Part shown: positions 1-60,902 of the stretch, one piece after another
Layout of the letters: every line of letters begins with the position of its first letter
How positions within the stretch are numbered: the stretch's first letter is position 1
Origin: an uncultured archaeon
Lineage (GTDB): Archaea > EX4484-52 > JAADEF01
DNA: 64,000 bases
Assembly (NCBI GenBank): GCA_964407715.1
Contig: CAYOWP010000003.1
Location: 15,732-79,731, forward strand
Direction: 5' to 3'
Notes under the pieces: generated by a model
Seen by the model: the letters and a program-made list of their open reading frames with translations, nothing else
Database searches by the model: none
Told to the model about the DNA's origin: nothing
Made by a program: the position numbers and the translations under genes

Positions 1-3000
1 TTGTTTTTTGTAGATATCCCGTATTATTGCGATAGGTTGCATTAACTATTACAAGAGTAGGTGTTGGACATAGAATATTAGAAGATGGTTTAAAACATCC
101 ATTATCATCATTATATTCAAGAGAATATAAAGCATCACCACATTTAAATGTTCCATAATCCAATTCGGTTATAGGATCAAAATTATTCATGTGAGAAATA
201 CAAACATCAACATATGAAAGATCCCCTTGAGCATTAAATAATAAATTCTCTAAGGTGACATTCAATTTATTTGTAGTTGTAAACTCAAAAATCTTATTGC
301 CTCTATTTTTATAATAAAATAGTGTTATGTTCATATTGTATTGAGATGGTGTCTCATTAAGTGAAATAGAATAGTTTAAATTATTATAAGTATAAACAAG
401 ATTGCTAAAATTACATAAACCAACAACCTCATTGCACTCAATATAATATGATTTATTATGAGATAAGTCATCCAAGATAATTGTAGCATTTGTTTTCTCT
501 GTTATAAGTAAACCATTTGATAAATTAAATAATATTTCAAATGATTGTCCTCTATTGTATATCCCAGCCTCTTTATATATAACCACTATTATTCTATCTA
601 CAATTGGTATGTCTCTCACCATAGAAGAAGAGTTTGAATAGTTGCCACCATAATCTTTTACATATAGTATGATAGAATAGTTACCAGTCTCATTAAGATA
701 TTTTCTTGGAACCTTTATCCAAAAGGTTCCGTTCGCATAATCACCGTAGAATATTGTGAAATCTGAAGAGGAAATAGAGACATTAGAGAAGATCCCCGAA
801 GGATAAGTGATCTCAACCACTGCCTCTGATATAGCAGTATCGTCACTTGCATTAAACACAATACCTAATTCATAATCCACATTAGATGTATTGTAAAGGA
901 AATATTTTCTATTATCTCCAGAATCCCATCCAAAAGCCCACCATGAAAGTGTTGGAGGTTGTGTATCAGTAGGTTTTAAGATGATGTAGCCAGTATCATT
1001 ATATATCTTCTCAGAGGTTGCACCATGTAAAACAGATACATTTATTGGCACTATTGTATCATTAATGATAGTAGTGGAGGTAAGGTTATAAGGTATTAAT
1101 AAGCAATTATCATGATAGTTGTAATAGGAAAGGTATTTTACATGTTTTTCTGGAGATTCTGTATAATTACCAATAGAGGTAAAGTTGATATATGTAGTAT
1201 TGGTTATGTTCAAAATGACAGTTACGTTATATAGATCACCATTTTTTGGGCATAGATGAATATAGGATAAGTTCTTAATCTCATTAGATAAAAATACGTT
1301 ACCAACTCCTCCCTCTGCACTAAGCACAATCTCTGGTTTTCCAAAGTTCACAAAGAAAGAGCTTTTTACTGTGAGATTCTTATCTTTTTGTGTGAAAATT
1401 GACTTTAAAGTATATTCTCCTGAGATGTTTATATTAAACAGATAACTTGGAAAGGAATAATTATAACATGTATAATTAGAAAGTATTTTTGCAAGATAGA
1501 ATGTGATTTCATGTATATAATCCGTACCGCTCCCCTCTATGGCAATGAGAATCTTGTTTGTTCTTATAGGATTTATAAATGTAAGATTGAGATATTGTGG
1601 TGTTGAATTATAGGGAATGTAGATGTTTTGGGTTGATGTATCCTCAGTTTCAACATATTTTCCTTGTTTTAAATCATAGTAATAAACTCGAAGAATCTCA
1701 TTGGGGCCATAGGGAGATTCTCCATACAAGCTAATGCCGCTAAAGACATATATATTATCAAATATATATGTAAGATTGGCATTTCCTGTAATGTATGTAT
1801 TGAATGTTGCATATGTCTCTAAATTACCATCATAAGATTGCTCTCCATAATCCACATAGCTTACATTAGTAATTCCTATAGGAACCTTAAAAACATCTGA
1901 TTGAGATTCATCAGCATAACACAAGTTCTCGGTAGTTGTGGAAAAGGAATAATAATCTATCTCATCAATATATCCGAATAATGTTCTGTTAATAAAAAGA
2001 GATAAATCATGTATAGGGGTAAGATTTCCTACAACACGAATCTCAGCATAGTTATTATCTGTTATATTTATGACCTCTTTATTTATAACAAATTTTGGAA
2101 TTACAATCTCTAAAGGAAATCTTTTTGAAATCATGCTTTTTGTGGTATAGTTAAATGTGTAGTTGTACTTATAAAGATATGTCAACAAACCTGTTTTATT
2201 TGTGGTGATATTAATACGTAACGTTATTGTTGTTCCATTAGTCAAATTGCCCAAGTCAATATAAGGATTATCATAACTTATCTCCACATACTTCTTTATG
2301 ATTCCTGTACCATTATCTATCTCAACAATGATATTATTGTTCATTTTGATTTTTGATGGATCTGAAAATGAAAAGTTAAGTGTTGCTGAATGCAAATCTC
2401 CATCTAAAACCTTTAAAGTCACATTAAAAAATCCAGTTTGATTGGCAAGAATCCTATAAACTGGAGAGGATGCTATTTTAATCAACTTGCCCGGTAAAAC
2501 ATAGAATTTCTTATGCGCTGTTAGAGGAGAAAAGTATGAATTCGTAGAAGCATTATAGTTTTTTAACTTTACTAAAGCATCAGCATAATAAACACCTGAA
2601 GAATTAAGTGGAAGAGATAAAGTATAGTTTACCATAAATATCATATTTTGCTTATCCTCTACAATACCTTCTAACTCAAAGTTAGAAAGATTATAAAAAA
2701 GAGTTTGGTTAACCACTTTTCCACTTTCATTAATTATTTCTCGTGTAATATTAAGATAAACTTCCTCAACATCTGTGGCGTTGTTATGTATAACTATCTT
2801 CAAATCACTATTATTTCCATAAGGATATATCTCTTTAGATATAAAAATCTCAATATATGGGTTTAGCACATATGTATAATATGCCATAGAATCATTATAT
2901 TTTCCTGAGTAATCTGAGATATTCGCATAAACCAAGGTTTTTCCAGGAGAAGAAGCATTAACATATAGGAATATAGGATGATTAAGAGGCGTAGAGAGAT

Positions 3001-3856
3001 TTGGCAATGTCTCCCCTGATCTCACATCACCTACACATACATTCAGGTTAGTTATAGGTGTCAAAATAGATTCATTAAAAATCGTAAAATTCCTCCAAAC
3101 ATCAAATGCCCTTCCATTATGCGTGGCATCATTAACATTTCTTATATGTGGAAACAAAGCCAACACATCTCCCACATAAGCATATGGATATTCTCTTATC
3201 CCCAATGTCCAATTAACCTCCTTATTTTTAGTGTATTTGTTCTGAAGAACAAGTTTTGGTGCCAAAATGTATGTGGAGGTTGAAGGCGAGCCGCATGATC
3301 CCCATCCCCACCCCACATTTCTCCAGTAATATAAACTCGCATTAAAATCTATAGAGATATCTCTTTCTTTGTAGGGTAAGGTATGAACGAAAGAGATATT
3401 TAAAAATGTGACTCCTGATGAATCTCCATCAAGATGGTCACAAATAAACTGATCATTTTCGTATGTACAAGCTCCAATAGAATCTGAAGGGCAATATCCT
3501 GCAAAATATTTGCAATCATACCCATTAGTACTACTATTATAATAACACATAGTAATGCATAAAGAATTATCGTACAAGGATCTAAACATTATTTTTTTAG
3601 GATAGTTCATCTCCTTCAAAGGTAATTTTATCTCATATTTACAATCATTATCACATCCACATCCTCCCTCATCACTTACTATGCTACTATAATTCACAAA
3701 TCTTTCTAAAGTATTTGCATCTCCACTCGTGATTTTGTTTGCATCTGTAGAATTAGTTGTTACTTTTATATATTGTGAATATGAAGGAGTTAAAAAAATA
3801 TAAAGCAGTACAATAAGAATAACCAAACCAAATGGATTAGATAATATCTTACGCAT
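1..3856 (-). CDS. Giant secreted, N-glycosylation-rich, Cys-containing surface protein. Partial: the stop codon lies beyond the left window edge, and more than 1280 aa fall inside the window
   Basis: Hand translation from the ATG at 3856-3854 gives MRKILSNPFGLVILIVLLYIFLTPSYSQ (signal peptide) followed by a continuous reading frame rich in N-x-S/T sequons. The ORF track shows no other ORF of 60 aa or more in 1-4344. The track omits ORFs without an in-window stop, which is why this one is absent. Confidence 0.7.
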   Translation of the reverse strand, partial: MRKILSNPFGLVILIVLLYIFLTPSYSQYIKVTTNSTDANKITSGDANTLERFVNYSSIVSDEGGCGCDNDCKYEIKLPLKEMNYPKKIMFRSLYDNSLCITMCYYNSSTNGYDCKYFAGYCPSDSIGACTYENDQFICDHLDGDSSGVTFLNISFVHTLPYKERDISIDFNASLYYWRNVGWGWGSCGSPSTSTYILAPKLVLQNKYTKNKEVNWTLGIREYPYAYVGDVLALFPHIRNVNDATHNGRAFDVWRNFTIFNESILTPITNLNVCVGDVRSGETLPNLSTPLNHPIFLYVNASSPGKTLVYANISDYSGKYNDSMAYYTYVLNPYIEIFISKEIYPYGNNSDLKIVIHNNATDVEEVYLNITREIINESGKVVNQTLFYNLSNFELEGIVEDKQNMIFMVNYTLSLPLNSSGVYYADALVKLKNYNASTNSYFSPLTAHKKFYVLPGKLIKIASSPVYRILANQTGFFNVTLKVLDGDLHSATLNFSFSDPSKIKMNNNIIVEIDNGTGIIKKYVEISYDNPYIDLGNLTNGTTITLRINITTNKTGLLTYLYKYNYTFNYTTKSMISKRFPLEIVIPKFVINKEVINITDNNYAEIRVVGNLTPIHDLSLFINRTLFGYIDEIDYYSFSTTTENLCYADESQSDVFKVPIGITNVSYVDYGEQSYDGNLETYATFNTYITGNANLTYIFDNIYVFSGISLYGESPYGPNEILRVYYYDLKQGKYVETEDTSTQNIYIPYNSTPQYLNLTFINPIRTNKILIAIEGSGTDYIHEITFYLAKILSNYTCYNYSFPSYLFNINISGEYTLKSIFTQKDKNLTVKSSFFVNFGKPEIVLSAEGGVGNVFLSNEIKNLSYIHLCPKNGDLYNVTVILNITNTTYINFTSIGNYTESPEKHVKYLSYYNYHDNCLLIPYNLTSTTIINDTIVPINVSVLHGATSEKIYNDTGYIILKPTDTQPPTLSWWAFGWDSGDNRKYFLYNTSNVDYELGIVFNASDDTAISEAVVEITYPSGIFSNVSISSSDFTIFYGDYANGTFWIKVPRKYLNETGNYSIILYVKDYGGNYSNSSSMVRDIPIVDRIIVVIYKEAGIYNRGQSFEILFNLSNGLLITEKTNATIILDDLSHNKSYYIECNEVVGLCNFSNLVYTYNNLNYSISLNETPSQYNMNITLFYYKNRGNKIFEFTTTNKLNVTLENLLFNAQGDLSYVDVCISHMNNFDPITELDYGTFKCGDALYSLEYNDDNGCFKPSSNILCPTPTLVIVNATYRNNTGYLQKT

Positions 3857-3910
3857 ATAAAATATTTAACTCCAAACTTTAATAAAAATTTTGCCTTTCT
3901 TTTTCTTCTG

Positions 3911-4150
3911 GAGAAGAAAATCGCTGTTACCAAATACCTTTAGCATGCTATCTTTTTCAATGATTAGCCGCTGCAATGCTCTCTAATAAGAGTTATGGTT
4001 CCCATTAACCATTTATCCTTTTTAAGGTTAGCTGCTGTAATGTAGCGCATTGATAAGGTATGCTTTCCCTTAACCATTTTATAAGAAATAATCAACGGAA
4101 AGATTAGGAGGCTAATTGCTTCAAAATGTCTTTGTAACAGATGTATCTCT
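3911..4150. repeat. Family B palindromic-module array (degenerate). Units contain GGTTAGC(T/C)GCT and TTCCC(A/T)TTAACCAT
   Basis: Repeated ggttagctgct...ttcccttaaccat units can be read directly in the sequence. Confidence 0.6.
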
Positions 4151-4287
4151 CATTAAATCCTCATCAAAAAATTATTGGACAATTTGTTCACGGGAAATAT
4201 AGCCATATTCAAAGGGTTAACCGCTCTAATGCGCTTCTTTAAAGGGTTATGTTTCCGCTTAACAATAAAGAATTATTGGACAATGCC
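4151..4287. mobile_element. Family A MITE half-element, reverse orientation, ending in the TIR AATTATTGGACAATGCC
   Basis: Reverse complement matches the left half of the full elements (ggcattgtccaataattctttattgttaagcggaaa...cccgtgaacaaattgtccaataattttttgatgagga). Confidence 0.6.
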
Positions 4288-4344: not shown

Positions 4345-5559
4345 ATGAAAGAGATTTTTCAAAAGCTCTATAAAAACATAAAAAATGTTACATATAAATT
4401 TGCACTTCCTGTTGCGCTTTCTTGGTATTGCTTAGTTGGAAATCCACAAGGATTGCCATTCTATAATATAAAAAATGCCTATGCAGAGATTAAACATATC
4501 AAAATTAAAGATGAGATCAGATTATCAGAAAAAGAATATATATGTTCAAGTGATAAGGTTTATGATCATAATAATGGCACAATACTATATACTAGATTTG
4601 AATGTTTAAATTCAGAAGATAATGACGACGCAAGAACAATTTTGATGTTTATCATTAATAAAGATAAAGTAAAAAAGGAAATAGATGAATATCTTGAACA
4701 TGTGGGTGACAAAACATATAATTCTACTGCTGATGAAATAATGTTACCATCGAAATGGACATATTTTCCATCTACTCCAGGATATGCCTTTGATTTACTA
4801 CAAGGAGAAGAGTATCCAGACATAATAAGACAGGGTGAAAGAGATAGAGTATTTGCACGTCAACTTGCTGAAAATACTATATTTACGTTTGAAGTAGTTT
4901 ATTATCCATATAGCAATAAACTTGATTTTATATTGGGTTTTTTATCATCTGAAATGTGGAAATTAATTCCAAAAAGCAATCCTCGGATTGATTATATCAA
5001 AAGAAGAGAGAAAATACCTGTATCCTTATGTGTATCTTCTCCTTGCTTAGAAGATGAAAATTCTGTTATTGAAGGTCGAATATTAGTGGATCCTTTCGTA
5101 AATAACATGGAATTTATTGAAGAAATAAAAAAGCATGTTCCTTATTTTATGTGCATAGATATTGGATATCTTTCCCCATATCTTGAGGATCAGCCAAAAG
5201 AAATCATAGAAAAAGCAAGAGACATAGTGGAGAAGAGTCTAGTGGTAGTTATTCCTCAGTATTATTATAGATTTGTGTGTTCTGATACAGATAAAAAAGA
5301 TAATTTTTATTTTGATGTTGAAATAAGCAGAGATTATTATACCTACACCGATACTTCCAAGTTTTATGTAGTAGTAAAATTGGAAGAAGGAAGCACAATA
5401 AAGGAAATTGTTAAAAAGGCAAGAAGAACTTTCACATATGAAAATGTAAAAACGGGAGCTGAGATAACAAAATACTTCTTTAAAATCCTATGGGATACTA
5501 TAAAAGAAAGCGTCACAACCAAATCTAATGAAAATAAGGATGAAAACTCTTCTCAATGA
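4345..5559 (+). CDS. Hypothetical protein (404 aa) with no recognisable domain
   Basis: Long ORF in an AT-rich genome with repeat arrays on both sides. Confidence 0.55.
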   Translation: MKEIFQKLYKNIKNVTYKFALPVALSWYCLVGNPQGLPFYNIKNAYAEIKHIKIKDEIRLSEKEYICSSDKVYDHNNGTILYTRFECLNSEDNDDARTILMFIINKDKVKKEIDEYLEHVGDKTYNSTADEIMLPSKWTYFPSTPGYAFDLLQGEEYPDIIRQGERDRVFARQLAENTIFTFEVVYYPYSNKLDFILGFLSSEMWKLIPKSNPRIDYIKRREKIPVSLCVSSPCLEDENSVIEGRILVDPFVNNMEFIEEIKKHVPYFMCIDIGYLSPYLEDQPKEIIEKARDIVEKSLVVVIPQYYYRFVCSDTDKKDNFYFDVEISRDYYTYTDTSKFYVVVKLEEGSTIKEIVKKARRTFTYENVKTGAEITKYFFKILWDTIKESVTTKSNENKDENSSQ

Positions 5560-5584
5560 TATTTACCCTTCAAAAATAAGTATA

Positions 5585-6060
5585 ATGGTTAAGGGAAATC
5601 ATATCCTCTAAAAAAATCGCATAACAGGATAGTAACCTTCAAGAGAAGGATAGCCGCTTCAAACTGCTTTGAGAGACCACATCTTCCACTCAACCATTTT
5701 AAATAAAATTTTGTTAACGTGAAAAATTGCTCCCTAAACCACATTATTGCATTGTAACCTCTATGAAAAGTTACCTGCTTTAATGTGCTTTTTTAGAGGG
5801 TTATGCTTCCCCTTAACCATTCTCTCATTTTGAAATATGGTTACCGGGAAGATATCGCTCTTTTAAGGTACATTGCAGCATGCTAACCTTTTTTTGAGGT
5901 TAGCTGCTTCGGAACCTCATCAAAAGGTTAGCTGCTTTGACATGCTGAACAAAAAGGTTATACTGCCTGTTAACCATTCTTTATTTTTTAGAAATAATTG
6001 GTTAACGCGAGGAATAGCCATCACAAAAGATACCGCTCCTAAAGTTTTATAGCATAACTA
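5585..6060. repeat. Family B palindromic-module array (about 4 units)
   Basis: Units such as cattgtaacctctatgaaaagttacctgctttaatgtgcttttttagagggttatgcttccccttaaccat. One unit is nearly identical to a unit at 8236-8296. Confidence 0.7.
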
Positions 6061-7600: not shown

Positions 7601-7604
7601 GCTT

Positions 7605-8400
7605 TGGTTAACGCAACAAAAATCATCCCAGGAGTATTGGAGAAGCTAACCTCTTTTTAAGGTTAGCTTCTCTAATGTGTCTCATTTAGAATGTACGCTT
7701 CCGCTTAACAATTTTCTAATAAATGGTTAACGTGAAAAAATCACTTTCATCCAGGTATTACAGGATCCTAACCTGGTTAAAAGTAGGTGTCTCACAAACC
7801 GCTTAGAGAGGTTAGCTGTTTTGATATGTCTTGTTGATAAGGTATCCTTCCTCTTAACCATTCTTTCATTTTGAAAAATGGTTAACGCGAGGAATAACCA
7901 TTCTAAAAGGTTTGCGGCATGCTAACCCTTTAAAAAAGTCAGCTGCTCACAAACCCCTCTAAAAGGTTACCTGCTCTAATGTGCTTTTTAAGAGGGTTAT
8001 GTTCCCGTTAACCATTTTTTTTATTTTTGAAAAATGGTTAACGCGAAGAATAGCCCTCACGAAAAGGTTCATGGCATTGTAACCGCTTTAAAAAAGGTTA
8101 GCTGCTTCCAAAACGCTCATAAAGGTTAGCTGCTCTAATGTGGTTTTTTAGAGGTTACATCTCCCCTTAACCATTTTTTATTTTAAAAAATTGTTAACGG
8201 GAAAAATAACCATTCTGAAGGGTTTTGCGGCATTGTAACCTCTATGAAAAGTTACCTGCTTTAATGTGGCTTTTTAGAGGGTTATGTTTCCCCTTAACCA
8301 TCTCTTATTTTAAAATGATGGTTAACGGGAAAATATCGCTTTCAAAAACACATCGCAGCATTGTAATCACACAACCGGTTAGCTGCTCCACAAACCACTT
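7605..8400. repeat. Family B palindromic-module array (about 6 units)
   Basis: Repeated ggttagctgctctaatgtg...ttcccgttaaccat[AT loop]atggttaacgggaa...gcggcattgtaacc. Confidence 0.75.
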
Positions 8401-17685: not shown

Positions 17686-17944
17686 GGCATTGTCCAATAA
17701 TTCTTTATTGTTAAGCGGAAACATAACCTCTCAAAGAAGCGTATGAGAGCAGTTAACCCTTTGAATAGGGCTATGCTTCCCGTTAACAAATTGTCCAACA
17801 ATTTTTTAATGAGGATTTGTTAACGAAAAAATTCGTTCTTATCATTGCATTAGCTCTCTAAGGTTTGCTGCTCTGATGCGCTTCTTTAAAAGGCTATTTT
17901 TCCGCTTAACAAATTTTGTTAATAGGGAATTATTGGACAATGCC
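17686..17944. mobile_element. Family A MITE, full composite (about 259 bp: two half-elements head to tail), TIRs GGCATTGTCCAATAATT / AATTATTGGACAATGCC
   Basis: Terminal inverted repeats can be read directly. The internal junction aaattgtccaacaattttttaatgagga repeats the TIR. Flanked by cctttaaa / ctttaaaa. Confidence 0.75.
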
Positions 17945-20808: not shown

Positions 20809-21351
20809 CTATTGCTCTCCTATATAATCATTATATAAATTATTACAAATATATTTTTTGTCTTTATCTGGTAATATAGAACATTTATTTTGGTGTGTTG
20901 TGATAGAAAAATATAATACACAACCCAATATATATGACTCCTCTCCATATGCTTTAATATTTAAACATTCCGCAGGATCTTTTTTATTAAGAGCTTTAAG
21001 GGTATAATAATGGGCTATACATGCCTTTCTATAATCCTCTTTCTTTATCCTTTGGCATATATCTATGGTATTTTTATTCTCCATCTCACTATAGATTTCC
21101 TGGAGATAGCGTACCTCCTCTATCGGAGATGTGAAAGATACTTGCGATTCCTTTTTAATTTCATTATTTCTGAGCGTGTCGTTTATATCATTAACTATAT
21201 TATGAGATATAATCAAAGAAGTTCCAATAATACATCCAACCATAAAACATAGCACCACATAGAAGACAAATCTCTTTTGATCTTCTTTTTCCATAAATAG
21301 AATATATTTGTGACAATAGAATATATATTTTGATATCTTAACCTCTAACAT
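20809..21351 (-). CDS. Small membrane-anchored Cys-rich protein. The true start is possibly Met20 at 21294
   Basis: TM anchor FVFYVVLCFMVGCIIGTSLII followed by a Cys-containing ectodomain. A MITE TIR abuts the listed ORF start at 21353. Confidence 0.5.
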   Translation of the reverse strand: MLEVKISKYIFYCHKYILFMEKEDQKRFVFYVVLCFMVGCIIGTSLIISHNIVNDINDTLRNNEIKKESQVSFTSPIEEVRYLQEIYSEMENKNTIDICQRIKKEDYRKACIAHYYTLKALNKKDPAECLNIKAYGEESYILGCVLYFSITTHQNKCSILPDKDKKYICNNLYNDYIGEQ

Positions 21352-21352
21352 T

Positions 21353-21501
21353 GGAATTGTCCAATAATTTTTTAATGAGAATTTATTAACGAAAAAATTC
21401 GTTCTTACAATCGCATCAGCTCTACAAGGTTCGCTACTCTAAGCGCTTCTTTAAGAGGCTACCTTTCCGCTTAACAAATAGAGAATTATTGGACAATGCC
21501 T
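21353..21501. mobile_element. Family A MITE half-element (about 149 bp) with 8-bp TSD tctaacat
   Basis: TIRs ggaattgtccaataatt / aattattggacaatgcc; flanks ...ctctaacatt | element | tctaacatc... Confidence 0.75.
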
Positions 21502-21509
21502 CTAACATC

Positions 21510-23396
21510 TTAATAACATCTCAAAATCTTATTCCTTATAGGATGATCTGATAGCTTATCTTTCACTCCACAAGTAGTCTCAACTATTATGTCTTTTATC
21601 TCATTACATAGTATATTGCAAGGTATCCTAAAAATACCTATTCCTCCAGGATGTAAAACATATACCTTCGAGAGATTTGTATAGCATACCTTCTTATAAT
21701 CATTGCTATAGATGGTTATGTTCTTTATCCCTGCTCTTTCAGAAAGTATATTCCTTATCCTTACTTTATATCCCTCAGAAGATCCAGAGATATTCATAGA
21801 AGTGATTATTCCTCCATGAGAATCTGCTCTATATGTGATTGGAACTATACAAGGTACTATACCAAAGCATTTATTGTTAATATAACCTAAAATGTAAGAG
21901 GTTATATCTGCACTTGAGCTTTCATTAAAGAATCCCTCATGCTTCCATACCAATTGCTCACCAACATAGATTTTTGGATTTAAAGGATATGTTTTTGATA
22001 ATGCCAAAGGATAATAATCTACATTTCCTGATGCTATTGTATAAGGGGAATCGCATATCCCATCATGATTCGCATCATCGCAAGTTTCTGAGTAACCATT
22101 TCCTGAAGGCGTAGCATACACATTACCACCAATGAAAGGTCTCCCCACTATGTTTGGTCCAAGTTGTAGGGAGGTGTTCCAGTGGTTTGATGAAGAAGAA
22201 ATATAAATGTTGTTTGTATTATTAAGGAGGTTATTGTAAAAGAAATTGTTATCTGTTGAGTATAGATAAATCCCATATCGATTATATGATATAATTGAGT
22301 TTGTTAGGATATTTTGAGATGAATCAGACCAAAAGTAAATTCCTTTAATACCATTATTATTAGCGGAAATATTAGTGATGATATTATAAGATGAGTCTGA
22401 AAGAAAAGATATCCCAGTAAGATGATTATTATTAGCAGAGATATTAGTCATCTTGTTATAGGATGATTCCCACAGATAGAGTCCATACCAACGGTTATTA
22501 TTAGCAAAGATATTAGTAATTTTATTATAGGATGAATCCTCAACACGTATTCCATCTCGATTCCAGCGTGAATCTATATTTCTTAATGTTGAGTTATTTG
22601 TTCCAACAATTAAGATACCATTGTTGTTTAAGATATCTGATCCCTTTATGGTAATATTAGTAAAGTTGCTACAGTCAGCATTACATAAAATTAATTCAGA
22701 AAAGATTTTATTTGAGATATTTATAGGAGAATTATAATACATTATAGGTCTGTTTCCTGATCCTTTTGCATTGATTATTACACTAGAACACGAAGAAGGA
22801 TACTCAATCATAATATCCCACATTCTATTCTCCTGAGCGATAATATCAGTAAGAATATTATCTGAAGACCCAGAAAGCTCAATTCCATGCCAATCGTTAT
22901 TATTAACTGTAATATTAGTGAGAGTATTAGAAGATGATCCTGAGAGAACAATTCCATGCCAATCGTTATTATTGGCTGTAATATCTTCCAAGGTATTATA
23001 TGAAGAAGTGGAGAGGTAGATACCATACCAATCATTGTTTTTACTCACAACATTCTCTATCTTGCTATCATGAACTCCATTATCGAAGTAAATTCCATGA
23101 TAAAATTCTTGGATTTCACAGTTTCTTATGGAGATGTTGCTTAAGGAGCCGCTTGCATATACACCATAAGTCTCCTCTGTTTTGTTTCCATCAATCATAT
23201 GCCATTGACAATCCAAAATCACATTGGAGGTTGTGATGTTAAAACACGTACTACTAGAGTTCCAAATATCGGTTGTGAGATAATACACACCAGGAGAGGA
23301 AATGGTGGTGCAGGAGTTGAGAGAGGTGGCTGCATAGGAAAAAGGTAATGTGAAAAGTATGAGTAAAAGCATCGCGATGAACAATAGATATCTCAT
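21510..23396 (-). CDS. Secreted right-handed parallel beta-helix repeat protein (NosD/pectin-lyase fold)
   Basis: Signal peptide; tandem NNNDWHGI(V/E)LSGSS(S/D)NTLTNI repeats. Confidence 0.75.
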   Translation of the reverse strand: MRYLLFIAMLLLILFTLPFSYAATSLNSCTTISSPGVYYLTTDIWNSSSTCFNITTSNVILDCQWHMIDGNKTEETYGVYASGSLSNISIRNCEIQEFYHGIYFDNGVHDSKIENVVSKNNDWYGIYLSTSSYNTLEDITANNNDWHGIVLSGSSSNTLTNITVNNNDWHGIELSGSSDNILTDIIAQENRMWDIMIEYPSSCSSVIINAKGSGNRPIMYYNSPINISNKIFSELILCNADCSNFTNITIKGSDILNNNGILIVGTNNSTLRNIDSRWNRDGIRVEDSSYNKITNIFANNNRWYGLYLWESSYNKMTNISANNNHLTGISFLSDSSYNIITNISANNNGIKGIYFWSDSSQNILTNSIISYNRYGIYLYSTDNNFFYNNLLNNTNNIYISSSSNHWNTSLQLGPNIVGRPFIGGNVYATPSGNGYSETCDDANHDGICDSPYTIASGNVDYYPLALSKTYPLNPKIYVGEQLVWKHEGFFNESSSADITSYILGYINNKCFGIVPCIVPITYRADSHGGIITSMNISGSSEGYKVRIRNILSERAGIKNITIYSNDYKKVCYTNLSKVYVLHPGGIGIFRIPCNILCNEIKDIIVETTCGVKDKLSDHPIRNKILRCY

Positions 23397-23405
23397 GTTA
23401 TCACC

Positions 23406-23738
23406 TTAATAAGGTATGGGTGTTAAATCTATGGTGACTTCAACATTGCTATTGTTTAGGGTTAGATTGAAAGTACTTTCCTCATATGCTTTGTCATGGA
23501 GAAAAGTTTTGTTGATATAGCTCTCTAATTTGTCTACTACTCCATAAGTTACTTTTTGGATGGAGACTTTTACTTTATCGCAGTTAACAGGTAAGTCCTG
23601 TTTTTCTGCTGATTCTGAGATGCTCCTTATGAATGATTTGAACCACCCACTATATAGCGCAGCTATAGCAGTAACAAACACAACAAGAAGCACAGCTGAG
23701 ATGGTTATGGATACTGCTTTTTTTGTTTTAGTTCTCAT
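23406..23738 (-). CDS. Small N-terminally anchored protein with a possible class III (archaeal type IV pilin-like) signal peptide
   Basis: MRTKTKKA|VSITISAVLLVVFVTAIAALY fits the [KR][GA][AV][ST] + hydrophobic pattern. Confidence 0.4.
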   Translation of the reverse strand: MRTKTKKAVSITISAVLLVVFVTAIAALYSGWFKSFIRSISESAEKQDLPVNCDKVKVSIQKVTYGVVDKLESYINKTFLHDKAYEESTFNLTLNNSNVEVTIDLTPIPY

Positions 23739-35836: not shown

Positions 35837-35912
35837 ATCATTTAAATTTATTTTTAAACATTTTAAATATTTTTATGTTTAGAAGTTTAGAATCAAATCA
35901 CCTTTAAAAAAA

Positions 35913-36565
35913 GGTTAGTTGCTTCAATGCGGTTTTGATAGCAATATTTCCCGTTAACCATGTTCTTATTTTGGAAAATATGGTTAAAGGGAAGCATACC
36001 ATCTCAATAGCGCGTTAGAGCAGCTAACCTTTCTAATGGATTAGTGAGCAGCTAACCTTTAATTAGGTTAGTATGCTGCAATGTGGTTGTGAAAGCGATA
36101 TCTTCCCGTTAACCATATCATTTATTTTAAAAAATGGTTAAAGGGAAACATACCTCTCTCATTCAGCACATTAGAGCAGCTAACCTTTTTATGCGGTTAC
36201 CATGCTTCAAGACCTTAGTGATAGACGATTTCTTCCCGTTAACCATGTTCTTATTTTGGAAAATATGGTTAAAGGGAAGCTTACCCCATCAACAGCACAT
36301 TAGAGCATCTAACCTATTGCAAAGGGTTACCATGCTACAAAACCTTTGTGAAAGAGATTTCCTCCCGTTAACCATATTTCAAAATAAAAATTTGGTTAAC
36401 GAAACACCTACCCATATACCCAAAGCGCATTACAGCATCTAACCTGTTTAAGCGGTTAGCATGCTCTAAGAGCTGTGGTAATAAGGGAATTCTTCCTGTT
36501 AACCATTTTAAAAATGGTTAGCGAGATATATACTAATTCATTTTGCGTATCAAATCATCTAACCT
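35913..36565. repeat. Family B palindromic-module array (about 5 units); two units carry near-identical loops
   Basis: ttcccgttaaccatgttcttattttggaaaatatggttaaagggaagc occurs at 35948-36000 and again at 36233-36285. Confidence 0.8.
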
Positions 36566-36656
36566 TTCTAAGCAGACAATAAGAATAAAATTTATATATA
36601 GTTGGTTTTGTTAATATATTATTATAATTGGGTTCCGAATAGGAGGTGAAGGAAGG

Positions 36657-41203: not shown

Positions 41204-41337
41204 ATATAAAATTCCCTCTTATGCTATTTTAAAAAATTTTTTAATAACCTCATCTAAAAACTCTCTTTTTCTCTAAAAAATAAAGTAGCAATATATTCGT
41301 AGAAGCAACATCATCTTAACTAAAATTTTTATTAAAA

Positions 41338-42185
41338 TGGTTAACGAAAAGCAAATCTTGTCAATAGCACATTACACCAGCTAACCTCAAAAAAGGTACC
41401 ATGCTACAAAGCCTTCGTTGGAGGAATTCTTCCTGTTAACCATATCTCTTAATCTCTTAAAAAATAAAAAATTGGTTAACGGGAAACATAATCTCTTCAT
41501 TCAGCATATTGAAGCAGCTATCCTTTTTAGAAAAGGTTAGCATGCTACGAAGCATTTGTGAGAGCGATATCTTCCCGTTAACCATTATTTTAAAATAATT
41601 GGTTAACGGGAAACATACATTATCATAAAGCCATATCAGAGCAGCTAACCTTCAAAAGATGGTATCATGCTCCAAACCCTTTGGTAAGGCGATATCTTCC
41701 CGTTAACCAATTATTATTTTAAAAATTTGGTTAAGGGAAAAATAGCCAATTCATTTAGCATATCAGAGCATCTAACCTTCTTAACCGGTTAGAAAGCAGC
41801 TAACCTTTAAAAGAGGTTAGCATGCTGCAAAACCTTTCGGAGAGATATTTTCTCCCCTTAACCATATCATTTATTTTAAAAATGGTTAAGGGGAACCATA
41901 CCTTTCTCCTTCAGCATATTGAAGCAGCTAACCTCATGAAGGCGTTTTGAAAGCAGCTATCCTTTTTAGAAAAGGTACCATGCTGCAAAGCCTTTCTGAG
42001 AGCGATATTCTCCCATTAACCAATTTTTATTTTTTTTTTAAAATTAGTTAACGGGAAAACATACCTCATCGAGAACCACATTCCAGCAGCTATCCCTTTT
42101 TAAGAGGTTAGTGAGCCTCTAACCTTTCTAAGCAGTTATCATGCTACAAAGCCTTTGGTAATAGCGATTTTCTTGCGTTAACCAG
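41338..42185. repeat. Family B palindromic-module array (about 6 units). This is the clearest example of the alternating-orientation BIME-like architecture
   Basis: Each unit reads TGGTTAACGGGAAACATAcc-N12-CAGCATATTGAAGCAGCTAACC-linker-GGTTAGCATGCTGCAAAGCCTTT-NN-GAGAGCGATATCTTCCCGTTAACCA. Units are separated by AT-rich palindromic spacers. Confidence 0.85.
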
Positions 42186-42255
42186 TTTTCATTTATTTAT
42201 TGGAGATAATTGAAAGAGAAACTTTTTTAAATCCAAAAAATATATGGAAATATTA

Positions 42256-42349: not shown

Positions 42350-42407
42350 GGGCGATGATTAAAAGACCGTAAGATGATGTGTGATTATGTGAACACCCAA
42401 TGAGCCC
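42350..42407 (+). ncRNA. Candidate C/D-box sRNA (about 58 nt) with a GGGC/GCCC terminal stem
   Basis: gggc-GCGATGA(C-box-like)-ttaaaagaccgt-...-AUGAUGU(C'-like)-...-AUGA(D-like)-gccc. Confidence 0.3.
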
Positions 42408-46685: not shown

Positions 46686-46948
46686 GACATTGTCCAATAA
46701 TTCTTTATTGTTAAGTGAAAACATAACCTCTCACAGAAGCGCATGAGAGCAGTTAACCCTTTGAGTAAGGCTACGCTTCCCGTTAACAAATTATTTTGAA
46801 TAGATAAAAATTGTTAACGGGAAGAAATCGCTATTACTACAGGTTTTGTAGCATGTCATCTTTAAGGTTCGCTACTTTAATGCGCTTCTTTAAAAGGTTA
46901 CTTTTCCGCTTAACAAAATTTGTTGATATGGAATTATTGGACAATGTC
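46686..46948. mobile_element. Family A MITE, full composite (about 263 bp), with 9-11 bp TSD cacattcaa(ga)
   Basis: Left flank ...acacattcaa|gacattgtcc...; right flank ...ggacaatgtc|cacattcaagag. Confidence 0.8.
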
Positions 46949-46963
46949 CACATTCAAGAGTCA

Positions 46964-47497
46964 TATTACAGCAGATAACCTTTTTTTGGCATATTACTTG
47001 CATTAACTAAACTCTTTATTTGGAAAATGGTTAAGGTAAAATATTCTCTCAATCAAGCACATTAGAGGGCAGATGATCTCTCTCTGAAAAATGATAGTGC
47101 GAGAAAAAACCTTCATAATGAGATCCTTAATAATTTTAGAATTTATTTTATAAAATCTGGTTAACAGGAAAATATCGCTAACATAAAGATTTTGCAGCAT
47201 GGCATCTTTTTAGGTGGTTAGCCGCTCCAATGTAATTGCTTTAGTGGTATGTTTCTCGTTAACCAAATTTTTATTTTGAAAGATGGTTAACGCGAGGAAA
47301 TCGTTTTCACAAAGGCTTTGCAGCATGCTAACTTTTTTTGGTTATCTGCTTTTGATATGGATCATCTCCTGTTTAATAAAATTGGTTAAGAAAAATTTAA
47401 TCTCCTTCTTAGGAGTATTACAGCAGCTAACCTTTTTTTAGCAGGTTATCATGCTGCAAAAACTTTCGTAATAATGTTTTTTTCTTCTGTTAACCAG
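46964..47497. repeat. Family B palindromic-module array (about 4 units)
   Basis: ggttaacgcgaggaaatcg..., tttgcagcatgctaac..., cagcagctaacc... Confidence 0.7.
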
Positions 47498-47563
47498 TTC
47501 TATCTTATTAAGATTCTATTGGAGCGGAAGAAAATTTTTAAATAAAATAAATAAAATCAATAA

Positions 47564-47575: not shown

Positions 47576-47589
47576 TTGAATTTTCTTTT

Positions 47590-47673
47590 GTCGGGGTCGC
47601 CTAGCCTGGTATGGCGCCAGCCTGCTAAGCTGGTTCCCGTAAGGGATCGAGGGTTCGAATCCCTCCCCCGACG
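47590..47673 (+). tRNA. tRNA-Ser (anticodon GCU) with a long variable arm
   Basis: GTCGGGG acceptor stem, anticodon loop CUGCUAA, variable arm TTCCCGTAAGGGATC, T-arm GAGGGTTCGAATCCCTC, 3' CCCCGAC-G. Confidence 0.85.
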
Positions 47674-47680
47674 TTTTTTG

Positions 47681-47838
47681 GGCATTGTCCAATAATTTTT
47701 TGATGAGGATTTGTTAACGAGAAAATTCGTTCTTACAATCGCATTAGCTCTACAAGGTTCGCTACTTTAATGCGCTTCTTTAAAAGGTTACTTTTCTGCT
47801 TAACAAAATTTGTTGATATGGAATTATTGAACAATGCC
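47681..47838. mobile_element. Family A MITE half-element (about 158 bp) inserted into the T-tract 3 nt downstream of tRNA-Ser, with 8-9 bp TSD (c)gttttttg
   Basis: ...acgttttttg|ggcattgtcc ... ggacaatgcc|cgttttttgag. Confidence 0.8.
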
Positions 47839-52742: not shown

Positions 52743-52772
52743 CATACCATAGATTCTCAAATGGAATATCAT

Positions 52773-53460
52773 TGGTTAACGGGAAAAATAACCTCTCTCT
52801 TTGGGTATTGAAGCGCCTAATCCTTTTGAAAGAGGAACTATGCTGCAAACCAAAGTGTAGAGTGATATCCTCCCGTTAACCATTTTTTATTTGGAAGATG
52901 GTTAAGGGAGACATTCCTTATCAATAGCACATTAAAGCAGCTAACCTTTCTAACCGGTTAGGAAGCAGCTAAACCTTTTTAAGTGGTTAGCATGCTGCAA
53001 GACCTTCTGGAAAAGCGATTTCCTCCCGTTAACCAAAATTTTTATTTTTTGAATTGGTTAACTGGAAGCATACCCAATGAACAAGCCATAGCAAAGCAGC
53101 TAACCTTTTTAAGCGGTTTAGAAGCAGCTAAACCTTTTTGGAAAGGATGCCATGCTGCAATATCCTTTGTGTTAGCGATTTCCTCGCGTTAACCAGATTT
53201 TTATTCAAAATAATTGGTTAACGGGCAGCATACCTTGTCAAGAAAGCACATTACAGCAGCTAACATTTTTAAGCGTTTTGGAAGCAGCTGACTATCTCAT
53301 GGGAAGTTAACATGCTCAAAGATCCACTGTAATGGTTATCTCTTCTGTTAACCTTTTCTTTGAAATAAAATAAAGATCTGTTTAAGTGGAATAATAACAA
53401 ATGAATGAGCCATCCTATAGCAGTTAATCTTTCTGAGCAGATAGGAAATAGCTATCCTTG
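52773..53460. repeat. Family B palindromic-module array (about 5 units)
   Basis: tggttaacgggaaaaataacc..., gcagctaacc, ggttagcatgctgcaa, ttcctcccgttaacca. Confidence 0.8.
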
Positions 53461-53498: not shown

Positions 53499-53805
53499 GG
53501 CATTGTCCAATAATTCTTTATTGTTAAGCGGAAACATAACCTCTCACAGAAGCACATGAGAGCAGTTAACCCTTCATAGCGATTATGAAGCAAGTAACCT
53601 TTCAACAATGTTAACCTGCCCCAAAACCCTTTGAATAGAGCTACGCTTCCCGTTAACAAATTGTCCAATAATTTTCTGATGAGGATTTGTTAACGAGAAA
53701 ATTCATTCTTACGATTGCATTAGCTCTATAATGTTCGCTACTTTAATGCACTTCTTTAAGAGGTTACTTTTCCGCTTAACAAATAGAGAATCATTGAACA
53801 ATACC
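53499..53805. mobile_element. Family A MITE, full composite with an internal family B insert (about 307 bp), flanked by a direct repeat of at least 10 bp, tcaattgcat
   Basis: ...caatacctcaattgcat|ggcattgtcc ... gaacaatacc|tcaattgcattaaac. Confidence 0.8.
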
Positions 53806-55879: not shown

Positions 55880-56110
55880 ATGTTGCCCAATAATATATTT
55901 TGAAAATTTTGTTAACGGGAAACAATGCTATTCAAAAGATTTTAGAGTATGCTATCTTTTTCAATGGTTACCTGCCGTACAGTATGTTTTTAATATGCCT
56001 ATGTCTCCCCTTAACCATTTTTATCCTTTTTAATTTGGTTAATGAGAAACTTTCGCTTTCACTAAGGTAGTGCGGCATAGTAACCTGGTTAAAAATATTG
56101 GACATCACTA
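55880..56110. mobile_element. Degenerate family A-like element with decayed TIRs (catgttgcccaataat ... aatattggacatc)
   Basis: Internal family B-type cores (gttaacgggaaacaa, tctccccttaaccat) lie between TIR-like ends. Confidence 0.5.
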
Positions 56111-60644: not shown

Positions 60645-60902
60645 GGCTTTGTCCAATAATTCTTTATTGTTAAGCGGACACATAACCTCTCACAGAAGCG
60701 CATGAGAGCGGTTAACCCTTTGAATAGGGCTATGCTTCCCGTTAACAAATTGTCCAATAATTTTTGATGAGGATTTGTTAACGAGAAAATTCGTTCTTAC
60801 GATTGCATTAGCTCTACAAGGTTTGCTGCTCTAATGGGCTTCTTTAAAAGATTACTTTTCCGCTTAACAAAATTTGTTAATAAAGAATTATTGGACAATG
60901 CC
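60645..60902. mobile_element. Family A MITE, full composite (about 258 bp)
   Basis: ggctttgtccaataattctttattgttaagcgga ... tttccgcttaacaaaatttgttaataaagaattattggacaatgcc. Confidence 0.75.

Follow-up and report, generated by a model that had tools for sequence, protein, structure and literature searches.

The element at positions 46686-46948 and its kin are, with high confidence, a family of non-autonomous DNA transposons (MITEs) in an uncultured DPANN-type archaeon, bounded by 17-nt TIRs and flanked by 9-bp target-site duplications. We analysed a 64-kb stretch of one contig (64,000 nucleotides; the window), together with further loci of the same repeat family. The observation is confirmed, and the evidence supports the MITE reading: the elements are an ordinary type of small non-coding mobile DNA, and the results change nothing known about how MITEs work. 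In MITE-Tracker surveys, prokaryotic MITEs are likewise small, non-coding, TIR-bounded and multi-copy, with target duplications and about 90% intergenic placement, and DPANN genomes (an Altiarchaeum, a Woesearchaeal) are among the most MITE-dense archaea (PMC11602168). The present family differs from the surveyed MITEs (PMC11602168) in two respects: it has a modular interior in common with untipped arrays, and the metagenome scan finds its sequence in one metagenome population only.

Termini, copies and target-site duplications

At least eight copies with common termini had been claimed for the window, and eight are there: 6 complete, 1 truncated and 1 divergent, every one intergenic (Table 1). 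The 17-nt terminus GGCATTGTCCAATAATT has 16 matches in the window with at most 3 mismatches, where shuffled sequence gives 0.40 on average and never more than 3. The family is dispersed as well as multi-copy; a metagenome scan added about 17 copies on 13 loci of a single JGI metagenome, using a pattern that demanded 6 extra bases past the TIR and that an IS could have escaped. The set of complete elements (n = 21) comprises 6 from the window and 15 from these loci, and all have the 17-nt TIR at both ends, perfect or with up to 3 mismatches; inverted symmetry reaches about 43 nt in some copies and runs through the outer arms in the long form. Elements measure 89-390 bp, no listed ORF (at least 80 aa) lies inside a window element, and the number of repeat bases within ORFs is zero.

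Table 1. MITE copies and foldback-unit arrays of the window
Feature	Positions	Strand	Description
Copy A, truncated long	4151-4287	-	one terminus only
Copy B, canonical long	17686-17944	+	259 bp; flanks 7/9
Copy C, short	21353-21500	+	148 bp; duplication TCTAACATT / TCTAACATC, 8/9
Copy D, long variant	46686-46948	+	263 bp; termini GACATTGTCC at both ends; perfect 9-bp duplication
Copy E, short	47681-47838	+	158 bp; perfect 9-bp duplication
Copy F, long	53499-53805	+	307 bp; about 48 bp of additional arm sequence; perfect 10-bp duplication
Copy G, canonical long	60645-60902	+	258 bp; duplication not recognisable
Copy H, divergent TIR-capped subfamily	55880-56110	+	termini ...TGCCCAATAAT and ATATTGGACA...
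Short array, 1-2 units	3915-4079	-	stops about 70 bp from copy A
Array, about 3 units	5584-5980	-
Array, about 6 units	7603-8390	-	between two convergent genes
Array, about 5 units	35890-36575	+
Largest array, about 6 units of 107-148 bp	41334-42188	+	AT-rich linkers of about 20 nt; no GGCATTG termini
Array, about 3 units	47154-47499	+	partial arm from about 46970, 22 nt past copy D
Array, about 4 units	52770-53355	+	stops about 145 bp upstream of copy F

The original prediction weighed the possibility that flanking repeats are absent from most other genomic copies. With the 15 new elements included, 14 of the 21 have flanks that match at 8 or more of 9 positions within 2 nt of the termini, a rate of 67%, where position pairs drawn at random from these sequences reach 0.3% (binomial P ~1e-30); perfect 9-mers flank 6 of the 21, against a null of 0.02%. 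The duplicated 9-mers differ from site to site and directly abut the termini. Their modal length is 9 bp, with 8 bp once and, in three or four cases, either 10 bp or one nucleotide added to 9 bp. The duplication is real; its length, first given as 8-11 bp in the title and 8-10 bp in the text of the prediction, is 9 bp as a rule with a range of 8-10 bp, and only the 11 bp falls away. A convincing duplication is missing in 7 of the 21, among them copy G.

All four junction repeats singled out at the outset hold: CACATTCAA at copy D (9/9; 46677-85 and 46949-57), CGTTTTTTG at copy E (9/9; 47672-80 and 47839-47), TCAATTGCAT at copy F (10/10; 53489-98 and 53806-15), and TCTAACAT(T/C) at copy C (8/9; 21344-52 and 21501-09). 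The flanks of copy B are TCCTTTAAA and GACTTTAAA. Copy B has the 5' end of a ribosomal-protein/SecY operon on one side and a tRNA-Cys on the other, and the left duplication of copy E overlaps the final 2-3 nt of a tRNA-Ser (47589-47674). Copy C separates the stop codon of ORF 21510-23396 from the ATG of ORF 20809-21351, two minus-strand genes whose spacer was formerly 1 nt; the duplicated 9-mer includes the downstream gene's ATG, so that this start codon is repeated right after the upstream gene's stop codon, which is independent evidence for a duplication. Joined through one 9-mer, the two flanks would read TAAGATGTTAGAGGTTAAG on the minus strand of the window.

Duplications accompany elements of quite different size. 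Flanks match at 8/9 or better in five size forms, including a 371-bp element on L097 (9/9), a 390-bp element on L108 (8/9) and an 89-bp element on L103 (8/9), and one copy of about 135 bp joins them when a 2-nt offset is allowed.

An identity of about 90% among copies had been estimated, and it is borne out: window copies are 85-92% identical, and all 12 copies of about 250 bp, taken together, are 81-93% identical (mean 88%). The 137 bp of copy A share 91% identity with the left 136 bp of copy G, and copy D is 92% identical to L107:2045-2295. The family is old because its copies are only 81-93% identical, and since no pair exceeds 93% there is no sign of recent movement. Activity here has probably ended: the divergence among copies is 7-19%, a single mismatch is seen in many duplications, and the partner was not found.

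Modular interiors and mobilisation

The interior consists of one to about three non-coding foldback units between 17-nt caps, composed of arms of about 50 nt; the same arms build untipped tandem arrays. As single-stranded DNA, copy G is predicted to form a single long hairpin (-63.6 kcal/mol, z = -12). The sites at 4151, 21353 and 47681 were originally taken for half-elements; the latter two are short and complete, and the first is a long copy cut after its inner linker. The forms of 250-310 bp are not the head-to-tail composites they were taken for: their right part of about 150 bp is the short form, and their left part of about 100 bp is a different module, made of the outer TIR, arm a1 and a shortened arm b1'. 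A second left-end-like motif in direct orientation, CAAATTGTCCAATAATT, closes this module in four of the five long window copies (4151-4287 counted). Copy A retains the outer terminus, arm a1, arm b1', the inner TIR-like motif and 20 nt more before it breaks off; copy D is without the inner TIR-like motif and has a middle that differs from those of the other long copies. The form of about 150 bp most likely derives from that of about 250 bp through a deletion running from the outer left terminus to its direct repeat, the inner copy of ATTGTCCAATAATT. The right terminus of copy F is mutated (GGTATTGTTCAATGATT).

Copy H had been put down as a decayed copy. It is not simply decayed: it represents a divergent subfamily with its own termini (TGCCCAATAAT / TGTCCAATATT) and an interior of array-type units. 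By eye, the inside of its left end resembles the one-end interiors of L105:2804-2940, L107:1041-1175 and L102:11930-12075.

Movement of the family may be pictured in a few steps. A transposase encoded elsewhere, presumably of the DDE type, would bind both termini in trans; its cuts in the target would be staggered by 9 nt (at times by 8 or 10) and the element joined in; gap repair would then leave the flanking 9-bp direct repeat. Any pair of termini may be mobilised regardless of the content between them, which would explain the variants of 89, about 135, about 150, about 250, 307, 371 and 390 bp, as well as a unit of two MITEs and a toxin-antitoxin pair. The trans-acting enzyme is inferred rather than seen: about 195 kb, comprising the window and some 130 kb of further loci, yielded neither a transposase gene nor a TIR-bounded segment large enough for one.

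For the window itself, the original prediction of no autonomous partner is borne out as far as the scans reach: no TIR-bounded segment exceeds 400 bp, and 30 ORFs scanned singly gave no transposase family. The other 26 window ORFs were scanned within a pooled Pfam scan of 117 ORFs, of which the best 25 of 215 families are listed, which leaves room for a transposase. All-against-all blastn gave no repeat longer than 350 bp save the arrays, the toxin-antitoxin composite and a 389-bp stretch in a NosD-like gene, and the inverted repeats bounding 600-3500 bp were MITE or array pairs only. The segments between MITE ends on L102 and L107 contain a GGDEF protein with a membrane protein and a coiled-coil protein, respectively, and no transposase; ORF 4345-5559 (404 aa, between repeats) has no Pfam match and nothing transposase-like in its sequence.

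The presumed partner element and a toxin-antitoxin composite

The partner family is possibly IS1-like, a tentative guess that draws on three features: ends of the form GGnnnTG, a duplication of 8-9 bp and one cointegrate-like structure. All 42 termini of the complete elements (n = 21) have T at position 6 and G at position 7: most copies read GGCATTG, and the variants GACATTG, GGAATTG, GGCTTTG, GGTATTG, GGGATTG, GGCGTTG and AGCATTG all keep T6 and G7. The IS1 family has GGnnnTG ends, an 8-9-bp duplication, and copy-and-paste and cointegrate movement (PMC10425158 Table 8); the ends of E. coli IS1A, read directly, are GGTAATG and GGTGATG. The MITEs are alike in their ends, in their duplication (mostly 9 bp) and in the one cointegrate-like structure; beyond GGnnnTG, the likeness of the MITE terminus comes down, by eye, to a TCCAA block with a 2-nt offset. 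Membership in the IS1 family cannot be claimed. A phmmer search with E. coli InsA/InsB against six-frame ORFs of the window and 15 loci, a single-sequence search of a partial genome, gave no match at E < 0.5.

An archaeal IS6-like or IS256-like partner, with the MITEs moving via cointegrates that are later resolved, fits less well than an IS1-like one and is likewise tentative. IS256 elements have 8-9-bp duplications and ends starting G-g/a. In the IS6/IS26 TIR consensus, GGTTCTGTTGCAAA, the conserved positions are G1, G2 and G7; this pattern recurs at many archaeal IS6-like ends, which extend at least 18 bp, and IS6-derived MITEs are catalogued (PMC6807381). The present termini carry G1, G2, T6, G7 and T8 and agree with GGTTCTGTTGCAAA at 8 of 14 positions in a manual position-by-position comparison; G1/G2/G7 and TGT at 6-8 are common to them, IS6/IS26 and archaeal IS6-like elements, with MITEBth2 and MITEHarch3. 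The composite described below, a cassette between two direct MITE copies with an equal 9-mer at its inner junctions, also speaks for such a partner, and is like the direct-repeat, cargo-carrying 'pseudo-compound' structures of IS6/IS26, as in cointegrate-forming elements. Against it, the IS6 duplication is 8 bp where recorded, whereas the modal length here is 9 bp and exactly 8 bp occurs only in the L107 composite. No Tnp26 homologue was found by phmmer in about 195 kb, a search of low sensitivity because archaeal members are at most 25% identical to bacterial ones.

At two different loci outside the window, a ParE toxin-antitoxin cassette is enclosed by two direct MITE copies, and the inner junctions of the two composites are identical. 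The composite on L107 (L107:1379-2295) has an exact, in-register outer 8-mer, AGAACTGA, and the same 9-mer, TTTGATGTT, stands at both inner junctions; the sharing of this 9-mer implies a circular or tandem cassette as the target of an insertion or the partner in a fusion. In a presumed circle without a MITE, the cassette ends would be joined as ...AGGATTTGATGTT to TTTCATTAAAC. The inner junctions look cointegrate-like, and a cointegrate would yield exactly such an arrangement; we take this as a hint. As in known MITE-bracketed passenger units, two copies of one MITE surround the passenger and a duplication marks the outer ends; the composite differs from them in its cargo (a ParE-type toxin-antitoxin pair), its archaeal host and the shared inner 9-mer. 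The toxin-antitoxin homologue in relatives is without MITE flanks. The composite shows that the MITEs of this family have mobilised genes in an archaeon, and its junctions hint at a cointegrate pathway.

Tandem arrays, other readings and distribution

A feature that the first reading of the family's anatomy missed is that the MITE interiors belong to a far larger tandem foldback family. The untipped arrays consist of foldback units of 110-150 bp with arms homologous to the MITE interior; in the largest, the unit layout is GGTTAACGGGAA ... AGCAGCTAACCTTT loop GGTTAGCATGCTGC ... TTCCCGTTAACC. MITEs and arrays together make up 60% of the non-coding DNA of the window and about 9% of its 64 kb. Both decayed nested MITEs and IS26-style targeted insertion are ruled out as the source of the arrays, as the linkers hold no trace of the 17-nt terminus. 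The arrays are made of the same arms as the MITEs and are not explicable by the transposition mechanism alone.

Capped MITEs and untipped arrays could be two states of one undescribed modular foldback-repeat system, an idea that we regard as improbable. In such a system, the arms would be amplified into BIME-like arrays by a non-DDE route (unequal recombination, slippage or a hairpin-specific enzyme are candidates), and a DDE transposase acting on GGCATTGTCCAATAATT would move whatever lies between termini, be it a run of units or passenger genes such as the ParE toxin-antitoxin cassette, partly via cointegrates. If true, it would make up 60% of the intergenic DNA of a genome otherwise regarded as streamlined.

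Much less credible is that the repeats are REP/BIME-like palindromes spread on single-stranded DNA by an HUH (Y1) RAYT or IS200-IS605-type transposase, with incidental GGCATTG caps. The arrays alternate inverted a and b arms with two kinds of linker, formally like the Y and Z REPs of E. coli BIMEs, and both are tandem, intergenic arrays of two imperfect palindromic arm types; the units fold into stable predicted hairpins (z = -4 to -7). The likeness ends there: REPs are 20-40 nt long and the arms here about 50 nt, a GTAG-type 5' motif is lacking, a RAYT was not seen, the host is an archaeon, and one unit lineage has DDE-style termini and duplications. Y1 transposases leave no target duplication, whereas the capped copies have 9-bp ones; no conserved tetranucleotide stands beside the insertion sites (flanks inspected by eye), and no Y1 or TnpB gene occurs among 40 ORFs scanned singly. 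GGCATTG termini are absent from the arrays, to which alone this reading could still apply.

Strong predicted hairpins, a strictly intergenic placement and a consistent polarity within each array would also fit duplicated structured non-coding RNA genes or cis-regulatory hairpins, with coincidental flanking repeats. We give this very little credence: at the gathering score, Rfam finds two tRNAs only, and relaxed matches are spurious microRNA hairpins; the consensus fold retains only a terminal stem of 10 bp, of which a single pair is compensatory; arm mismatches pass uncompensated through neighbouring units; and copies lie in every orientation relative to adjacent genes, with duplications that are not due to chance. 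That the flanking repeats are chance matches in AT-rich DNA (32% G+C), with copies spread by recombination or gene conversion, is refuted by the excess of 8/9 matches and by 9-mers that vary from site to site and stand directly against the termini, even with 7 of 21 elements lacking a duplication.

Returning to the MITE family, its distribution is narrow. Neither the closer nor the more distant relatives searched carry any of the repeat superfamily, and in a DPANN-type archaeon, where a small and compact genome is expected, we see it as selfish DNA that invaded or expanded within this one lineage and its reduced genome. The unit profile gave no match in loci of six relatives (L091, L092, L094-L096 and L120, with L121 and L093 left out), whose ligase or glycosyltransferase is 53-88% identical, and blastn of MITE copies and arrays against L091-L096 gave none either. 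Synteny differs, and repeats are absent, in the ligase relatives at 59-66% and in the glycosyltransferase relatives at 53%; the long spacer upstream of the L092 ligase, considered as a related repeat, is a CRISPR array. Element H is missing from the same intergenic region of the relative with an 88% identical DNA ligase, where the spacer is 113 nt and the junction alignment imprecise. Precise empty sites in sister genomes were not found, the relatives being too distant or their contigs too short. In a genome collection, the 17-mer gave at least 88 unrelated singletons (bacteria, cyanobacteria and others), all of those listed being chance matches and uninformative; in a viral collection it gave chance matches of 17-20 nt only, and an interior 25-mer and an array-junction pattern gave zero matches. 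Assembly from short reads also breaks at the repeats, as MITE copies hold the start or end of two Logan contigs from the same strain; the repeats could act as a strain marker.

Shared termini and flanking duplications

The original prediction described a MITE family with shared termini. The 17-mer GGCATTGTCCAATAATT has 16 matches in the window (<=3 mismatches), whereas dinucleotide-preserving shuffles of the window average 0.40 and never exceed 3. The matches pair as inverted termini, giving six complete elements; a one-ended copy and a divergent element add to these (table). Three matches are internal (at 4170, 53657, and 60746) and have the sequence CAAATTGTCCAATAATT; the element at 17686-17944 holds an equivalent inner motif, CAAATTGTCCAACAATT at 17787-17803, one mismatch beyond the search threshold. 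Among the matches listed for the genome collection, the bare 17-mer occurs only as chance singletons, and the viral collection yielded no MITE copy. A longer degenerate pattern identified 13 loci in the metagenome collection, all from JGI metagenome Ga0190367 and none overlapping the window, with about 17 additional TIR-bounded copies of 89-390 bp.

Repeat elements of the window, with flanking duplications
Feature	Position	Strand	Termini	Flanking duplication (match)
One-ended MITE copy	4151-4287	-	single terminus	
Complete MITE	17686-17944	+	TIR pair	(7/9)
Complete MITE	21353-21500	+	TIR pair	TCTAACAT(T/C) (8/9)
Complete MITE	46686-46948	+	TIR pair	CACATTCAA (9/9)
Complete MITE	47681-47838	+	TIR pair	CGTTTTTTG (9/9)
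Complete MITE	53499-53805	+	TIR pair	TCAATTGCAT (10/10)
Divergent element	55880-56110	+	divergent terminus pair	
Complete MITE	60645-60902	+	TIR pair	none between flanks
Foldback array	3915-4079	-		
Foldback array	5584-5980	-		
Foldback array	7603-8390	-		
Foldback array	35890-36575	+		
Foldback array	41334-42188	+		
Foldback array	47154-47499	+		
Foldback array	52770-53355	+		

For the 21 complete elements, the 9-nt flank outside each left terminus was set against that outside the right terminus of the same element; 20,000 randomly drawn position pairs, spaced alike and taken from the same sequences, served as the null. With offsets of <=2 nt, 14 elements match at >=8/9 positions (null 0.3%; binomial P ~1e-30) and 6 carry a perfect 9-mer (null 0.02%); strictly in register, 10 reach >=8/9 (null 0.055%; binomial P ~1e-27). 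The direct repeats quoted in the prediction are present at the window junctions and, contrary to the refuting condition set there, most of the complete elements carry such repeats. The 4 clear window duplications measure 9 bp in 3 cases and 10 bp in 1. Lone mismatches vary in position from copy to copy, which fits the 7-19% divergence between copies.

Two insertion sites provide independent support for duplication. The element at 21353-21500 sits between the TAA of ORF 21510-23396 and the ATG of ORF 20809-21351, both on the minus strand, where the sequence reads TAA-GATGTTAGA-MITE-AATGTTAGA-GG; the empty site thus had a start codon 1 nt past the stop, and the duplication copied the start codon. 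The element at 47681-47838 adjoins the 3' end of a tRNA-Ser gene, which the left duplicate leaves intact.

At 21344-21512, then, a MITE came between two genes of the minus strand that had been only 1 nt apart, stop codon to start codon. The duplicated 9 bp include the downstream ATG, so the downstream gene retains its start; its translational coupling to the upstream gene was presumably lost. MITEs directly adjoin stable-RNA genes at the tRNA-Ser gene (47589-47680) and on the Ga0190367 locus L107 (1041-1305 and 2295-2400), next to a tRNA and an apparent 5S rRNA gene.

Modular interiors and tandem foldback arrays

The canonical long form (~250 bp) is an ordered series: terminus, arm a1 (GTTAAGCGGAAACATAACC...GAGAGCAGTTAACCC), a short loop, b1' (a shortened arm, GGGCTATGCTTCCCGTTAAC), a linker containing CAAATTGTCCAATAATT oriented as the left terminus, arm a2, arm b2 (the inverted counterpart of a1), and right terminus. 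Folded as single-stranded DNA, the long element at 60645-60902 is predicted to form one long hairpin (-63.6 kcal/mol, z = -12). The short form (148-158 bp) corresponds to the stretch of the long form that runs from its inner motif through the right end, with 86-90% identity; its first bases are GGC or GGA, not CAA. Deletion between the two direct copies of ATTGTCCAATAATT would most simply explain the short form; alternatively, the long form may have arisen by fusion. The "half-elements" and "head-to-tail composites" of the prediction are therefore only roughly right: the short form is the right part of the long form, and 4151-4287 is a long copy cut off 20 nt beyond the inner motif. Other loci carry a ~135-bp form (terminus, a1, b1', terminus), and forms of 371 and 390 bp carry extra units. 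The copies at 46686-46948 and L107:2045-2295 have in common a middle section unlike the canonical one, and are 92% identical to each other. Overall, the MITE interpretation is supported, and its anatomy corrected.

The arm sequences are not private to MITEs. The motif GGTTAACGGGAA has 59 matches in the window at <=2 mismatches (2.7 expected), and AGCAGCTAACCTTT has 55 at <=3 mismatches (6.9 expected); both are common to tandem foldback units of 107-148 bp, laid out as GGTTAACGGGAA ... AGCAGCTAACCTTT ... TTCCCGTTAACC and joined by AT-rich linkers of ~20 nt. A unit profile finds ~35 units in the window, ~45 in the 13 Ga0190367 loci (with arrays on L098, L099, L101, L102, L104, and L106-L109), and none in six loci of relatives (L091, L092, L094-L096, L120). 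Each window array has a single polarity and lacks GGCATTG termini; units of different arrays are only ~65-72% identical. The units fold as predicted hairpins in which only the terminal 10-bp stem is conserved, with one compensatory change. In GGTTAAAGGGAA, an A-for-C change recurs in three neighboring units, uncompensated in the partner arm, an indication of tandem duplication and not of selection on the fold.

Arrays and terminus-capped elements are intermixed: L104:9148-9547 comprises three units and then a right terminus, L107:~3660-4011 has two to three units flanked by degenerate termini, and L105:7042-7289 is a MITE inserted within an array unit (flanks 8/9). MITEs and arrays occupy 5778 bp, or 60% of the 9632 non-coding bases of the window, and none of the bases in its ORFs. 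Capped copies and arrays are on the minus strand left of 8.4 kb and on the plus strand from 17.7 kb onwards (15/15); orientations are mixed on other loci, so this polarity may reflect either chance or a local bias linked to replication. Positions 42351-42405, in the spacer that follows the largest array, resemble an archaeal C/D-box sRNA weakly and below threshold (Rfam sR39, 15.6 bits, E = 0.41).

Proposed mobilization and toxin-antitoxin cargo

The MITEs would be mobilized in trans by cut-or-copy transposition, with the target cut staggered by 9 nt. In line with the prediction, no autonomous partner was found in the 64 kb: apart from the cargo units, every TIR pair of the window and loci spans at most 400 bp, and the ORFs that were scanned one by one include no transposase. 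The only repeated segments >350 bp in the window and loci are arrays, the toxin-antitoxin (TA) unit, and one 389-bp stretch of a NosD-like gene. A phmmer search of ~195 kb with InsA, InsB, and Tnp26, insensitive for archaeal relatives, gave no match. The termini retain G1, G2, T6, and G7, and so carry the GGnnnTG of IS1, listed in the ISfinder family table with 8-9-bp duplications and copy-and-paste and cointegrate transposition (PMC10425158); the ends of E. coli IS1A read GGTAATG and GGTGATG. Most IS6/IS26 members share the signature, but their duplication is 8 bp (PMC6807381), whereas that of this family is mostly 9 bp. An IS1-like partner is a lead, not a finding, and a rather doubtful one.

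On L100 (2326-3334) and L107 (1379-2295), a 511-512-bp cassette lies between two MITE copies in direct orientation; it encodes a small antitoxin and a ParE-family toxin of 85 aa (PF05016, E = 3e-12 to 5e-12). These units are 78% identical over 836 bp, and the 9-mer TTTGATGTT lies at both inner MITE-cassette junctions. The L107 unit, between a tRNA and the apparent 5S rRNA gene, has an outer in-register 8-bp duplication, AGAACTGA; the L100 unit adjoins a 580-aa ORF. The same 9-mer on both sides, followed by direct MITE copies, suggests a cointegrate, in which an element transposed replicatively into a circle; a circle that already bore a MITE would leave the same structure on recombining with a chromosomal copy. 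Homologous cassettes of relatives (L124, L125) have no MITE flanks. That of L124 (sample 3300023439) lies between 16-bp direct repeats, CATAGAAGAAAGGAAG (~929-944 and ~1545-1560), so the cassette may be mobile by itself. At L102:9963-12075, genes for a 288-aa GGDEF-domain protein and a 235-aa membrane protein lie between a short MITE and a long one whose right end is degenerate; this unit has no outer duplication.

This family is probably an old one. Both bacteria and archaea are well known to carry MITEs, and a 2024 survey counted 18,091 in archaea, with DPANN genomes among the densest (PMC11602168); here, the sequence family is apparently new and the kind is known. Less ordinary are the modular interiors, which recur in BIME-like tandem arrays, the fraction of a DPANN genome's intergenic DNA that the repeats take up, and a TA unit with cointegrate-like junctions; none requires a new mechanism.

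Host and neighboring genes

The window (32% G+C) has the gene content of an archaeon: FttA, a proteasome subunit, EF-1alpha, SecY, ribosomal protein S5, the small subunit of DNA polymerase D, RFC, RIO1, an ATP-dependent DNA ligase, and TreT. Named ligase homologues (43-59% identity) come from MAGs of Woesearchaeota, Aenigmarchaeota, Nanoarchaeota, Nanohaloarchaea, and the 'DPANN group'. The exact window proteins are encoded by a single 116-kb contig and by short Logan contigs (run SRR7051321); two of the Logan contigs start or stop within MITE copies.

An ORF of at least 1288 codons (2-3865, minus strand) extends off the left window end, and a 404-aa ORF without a Pfam match (4345-5559, plus strand) lies between repeat arrays. 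The NosD/beta-helix stretch (389 bp, 23018-23406) is 79% identical to L099:5142-5530; paralogous surface-protein genes therefore exist. In a relative whose ligase is 66% identical, the spacer upstream of the ligase gene contains a CRISPR array (L092:7173-7777) of 9 repeats ending CTTCCACACCTGCTAGTAGTTCTAAAAC, spaced ~70 nt apart.
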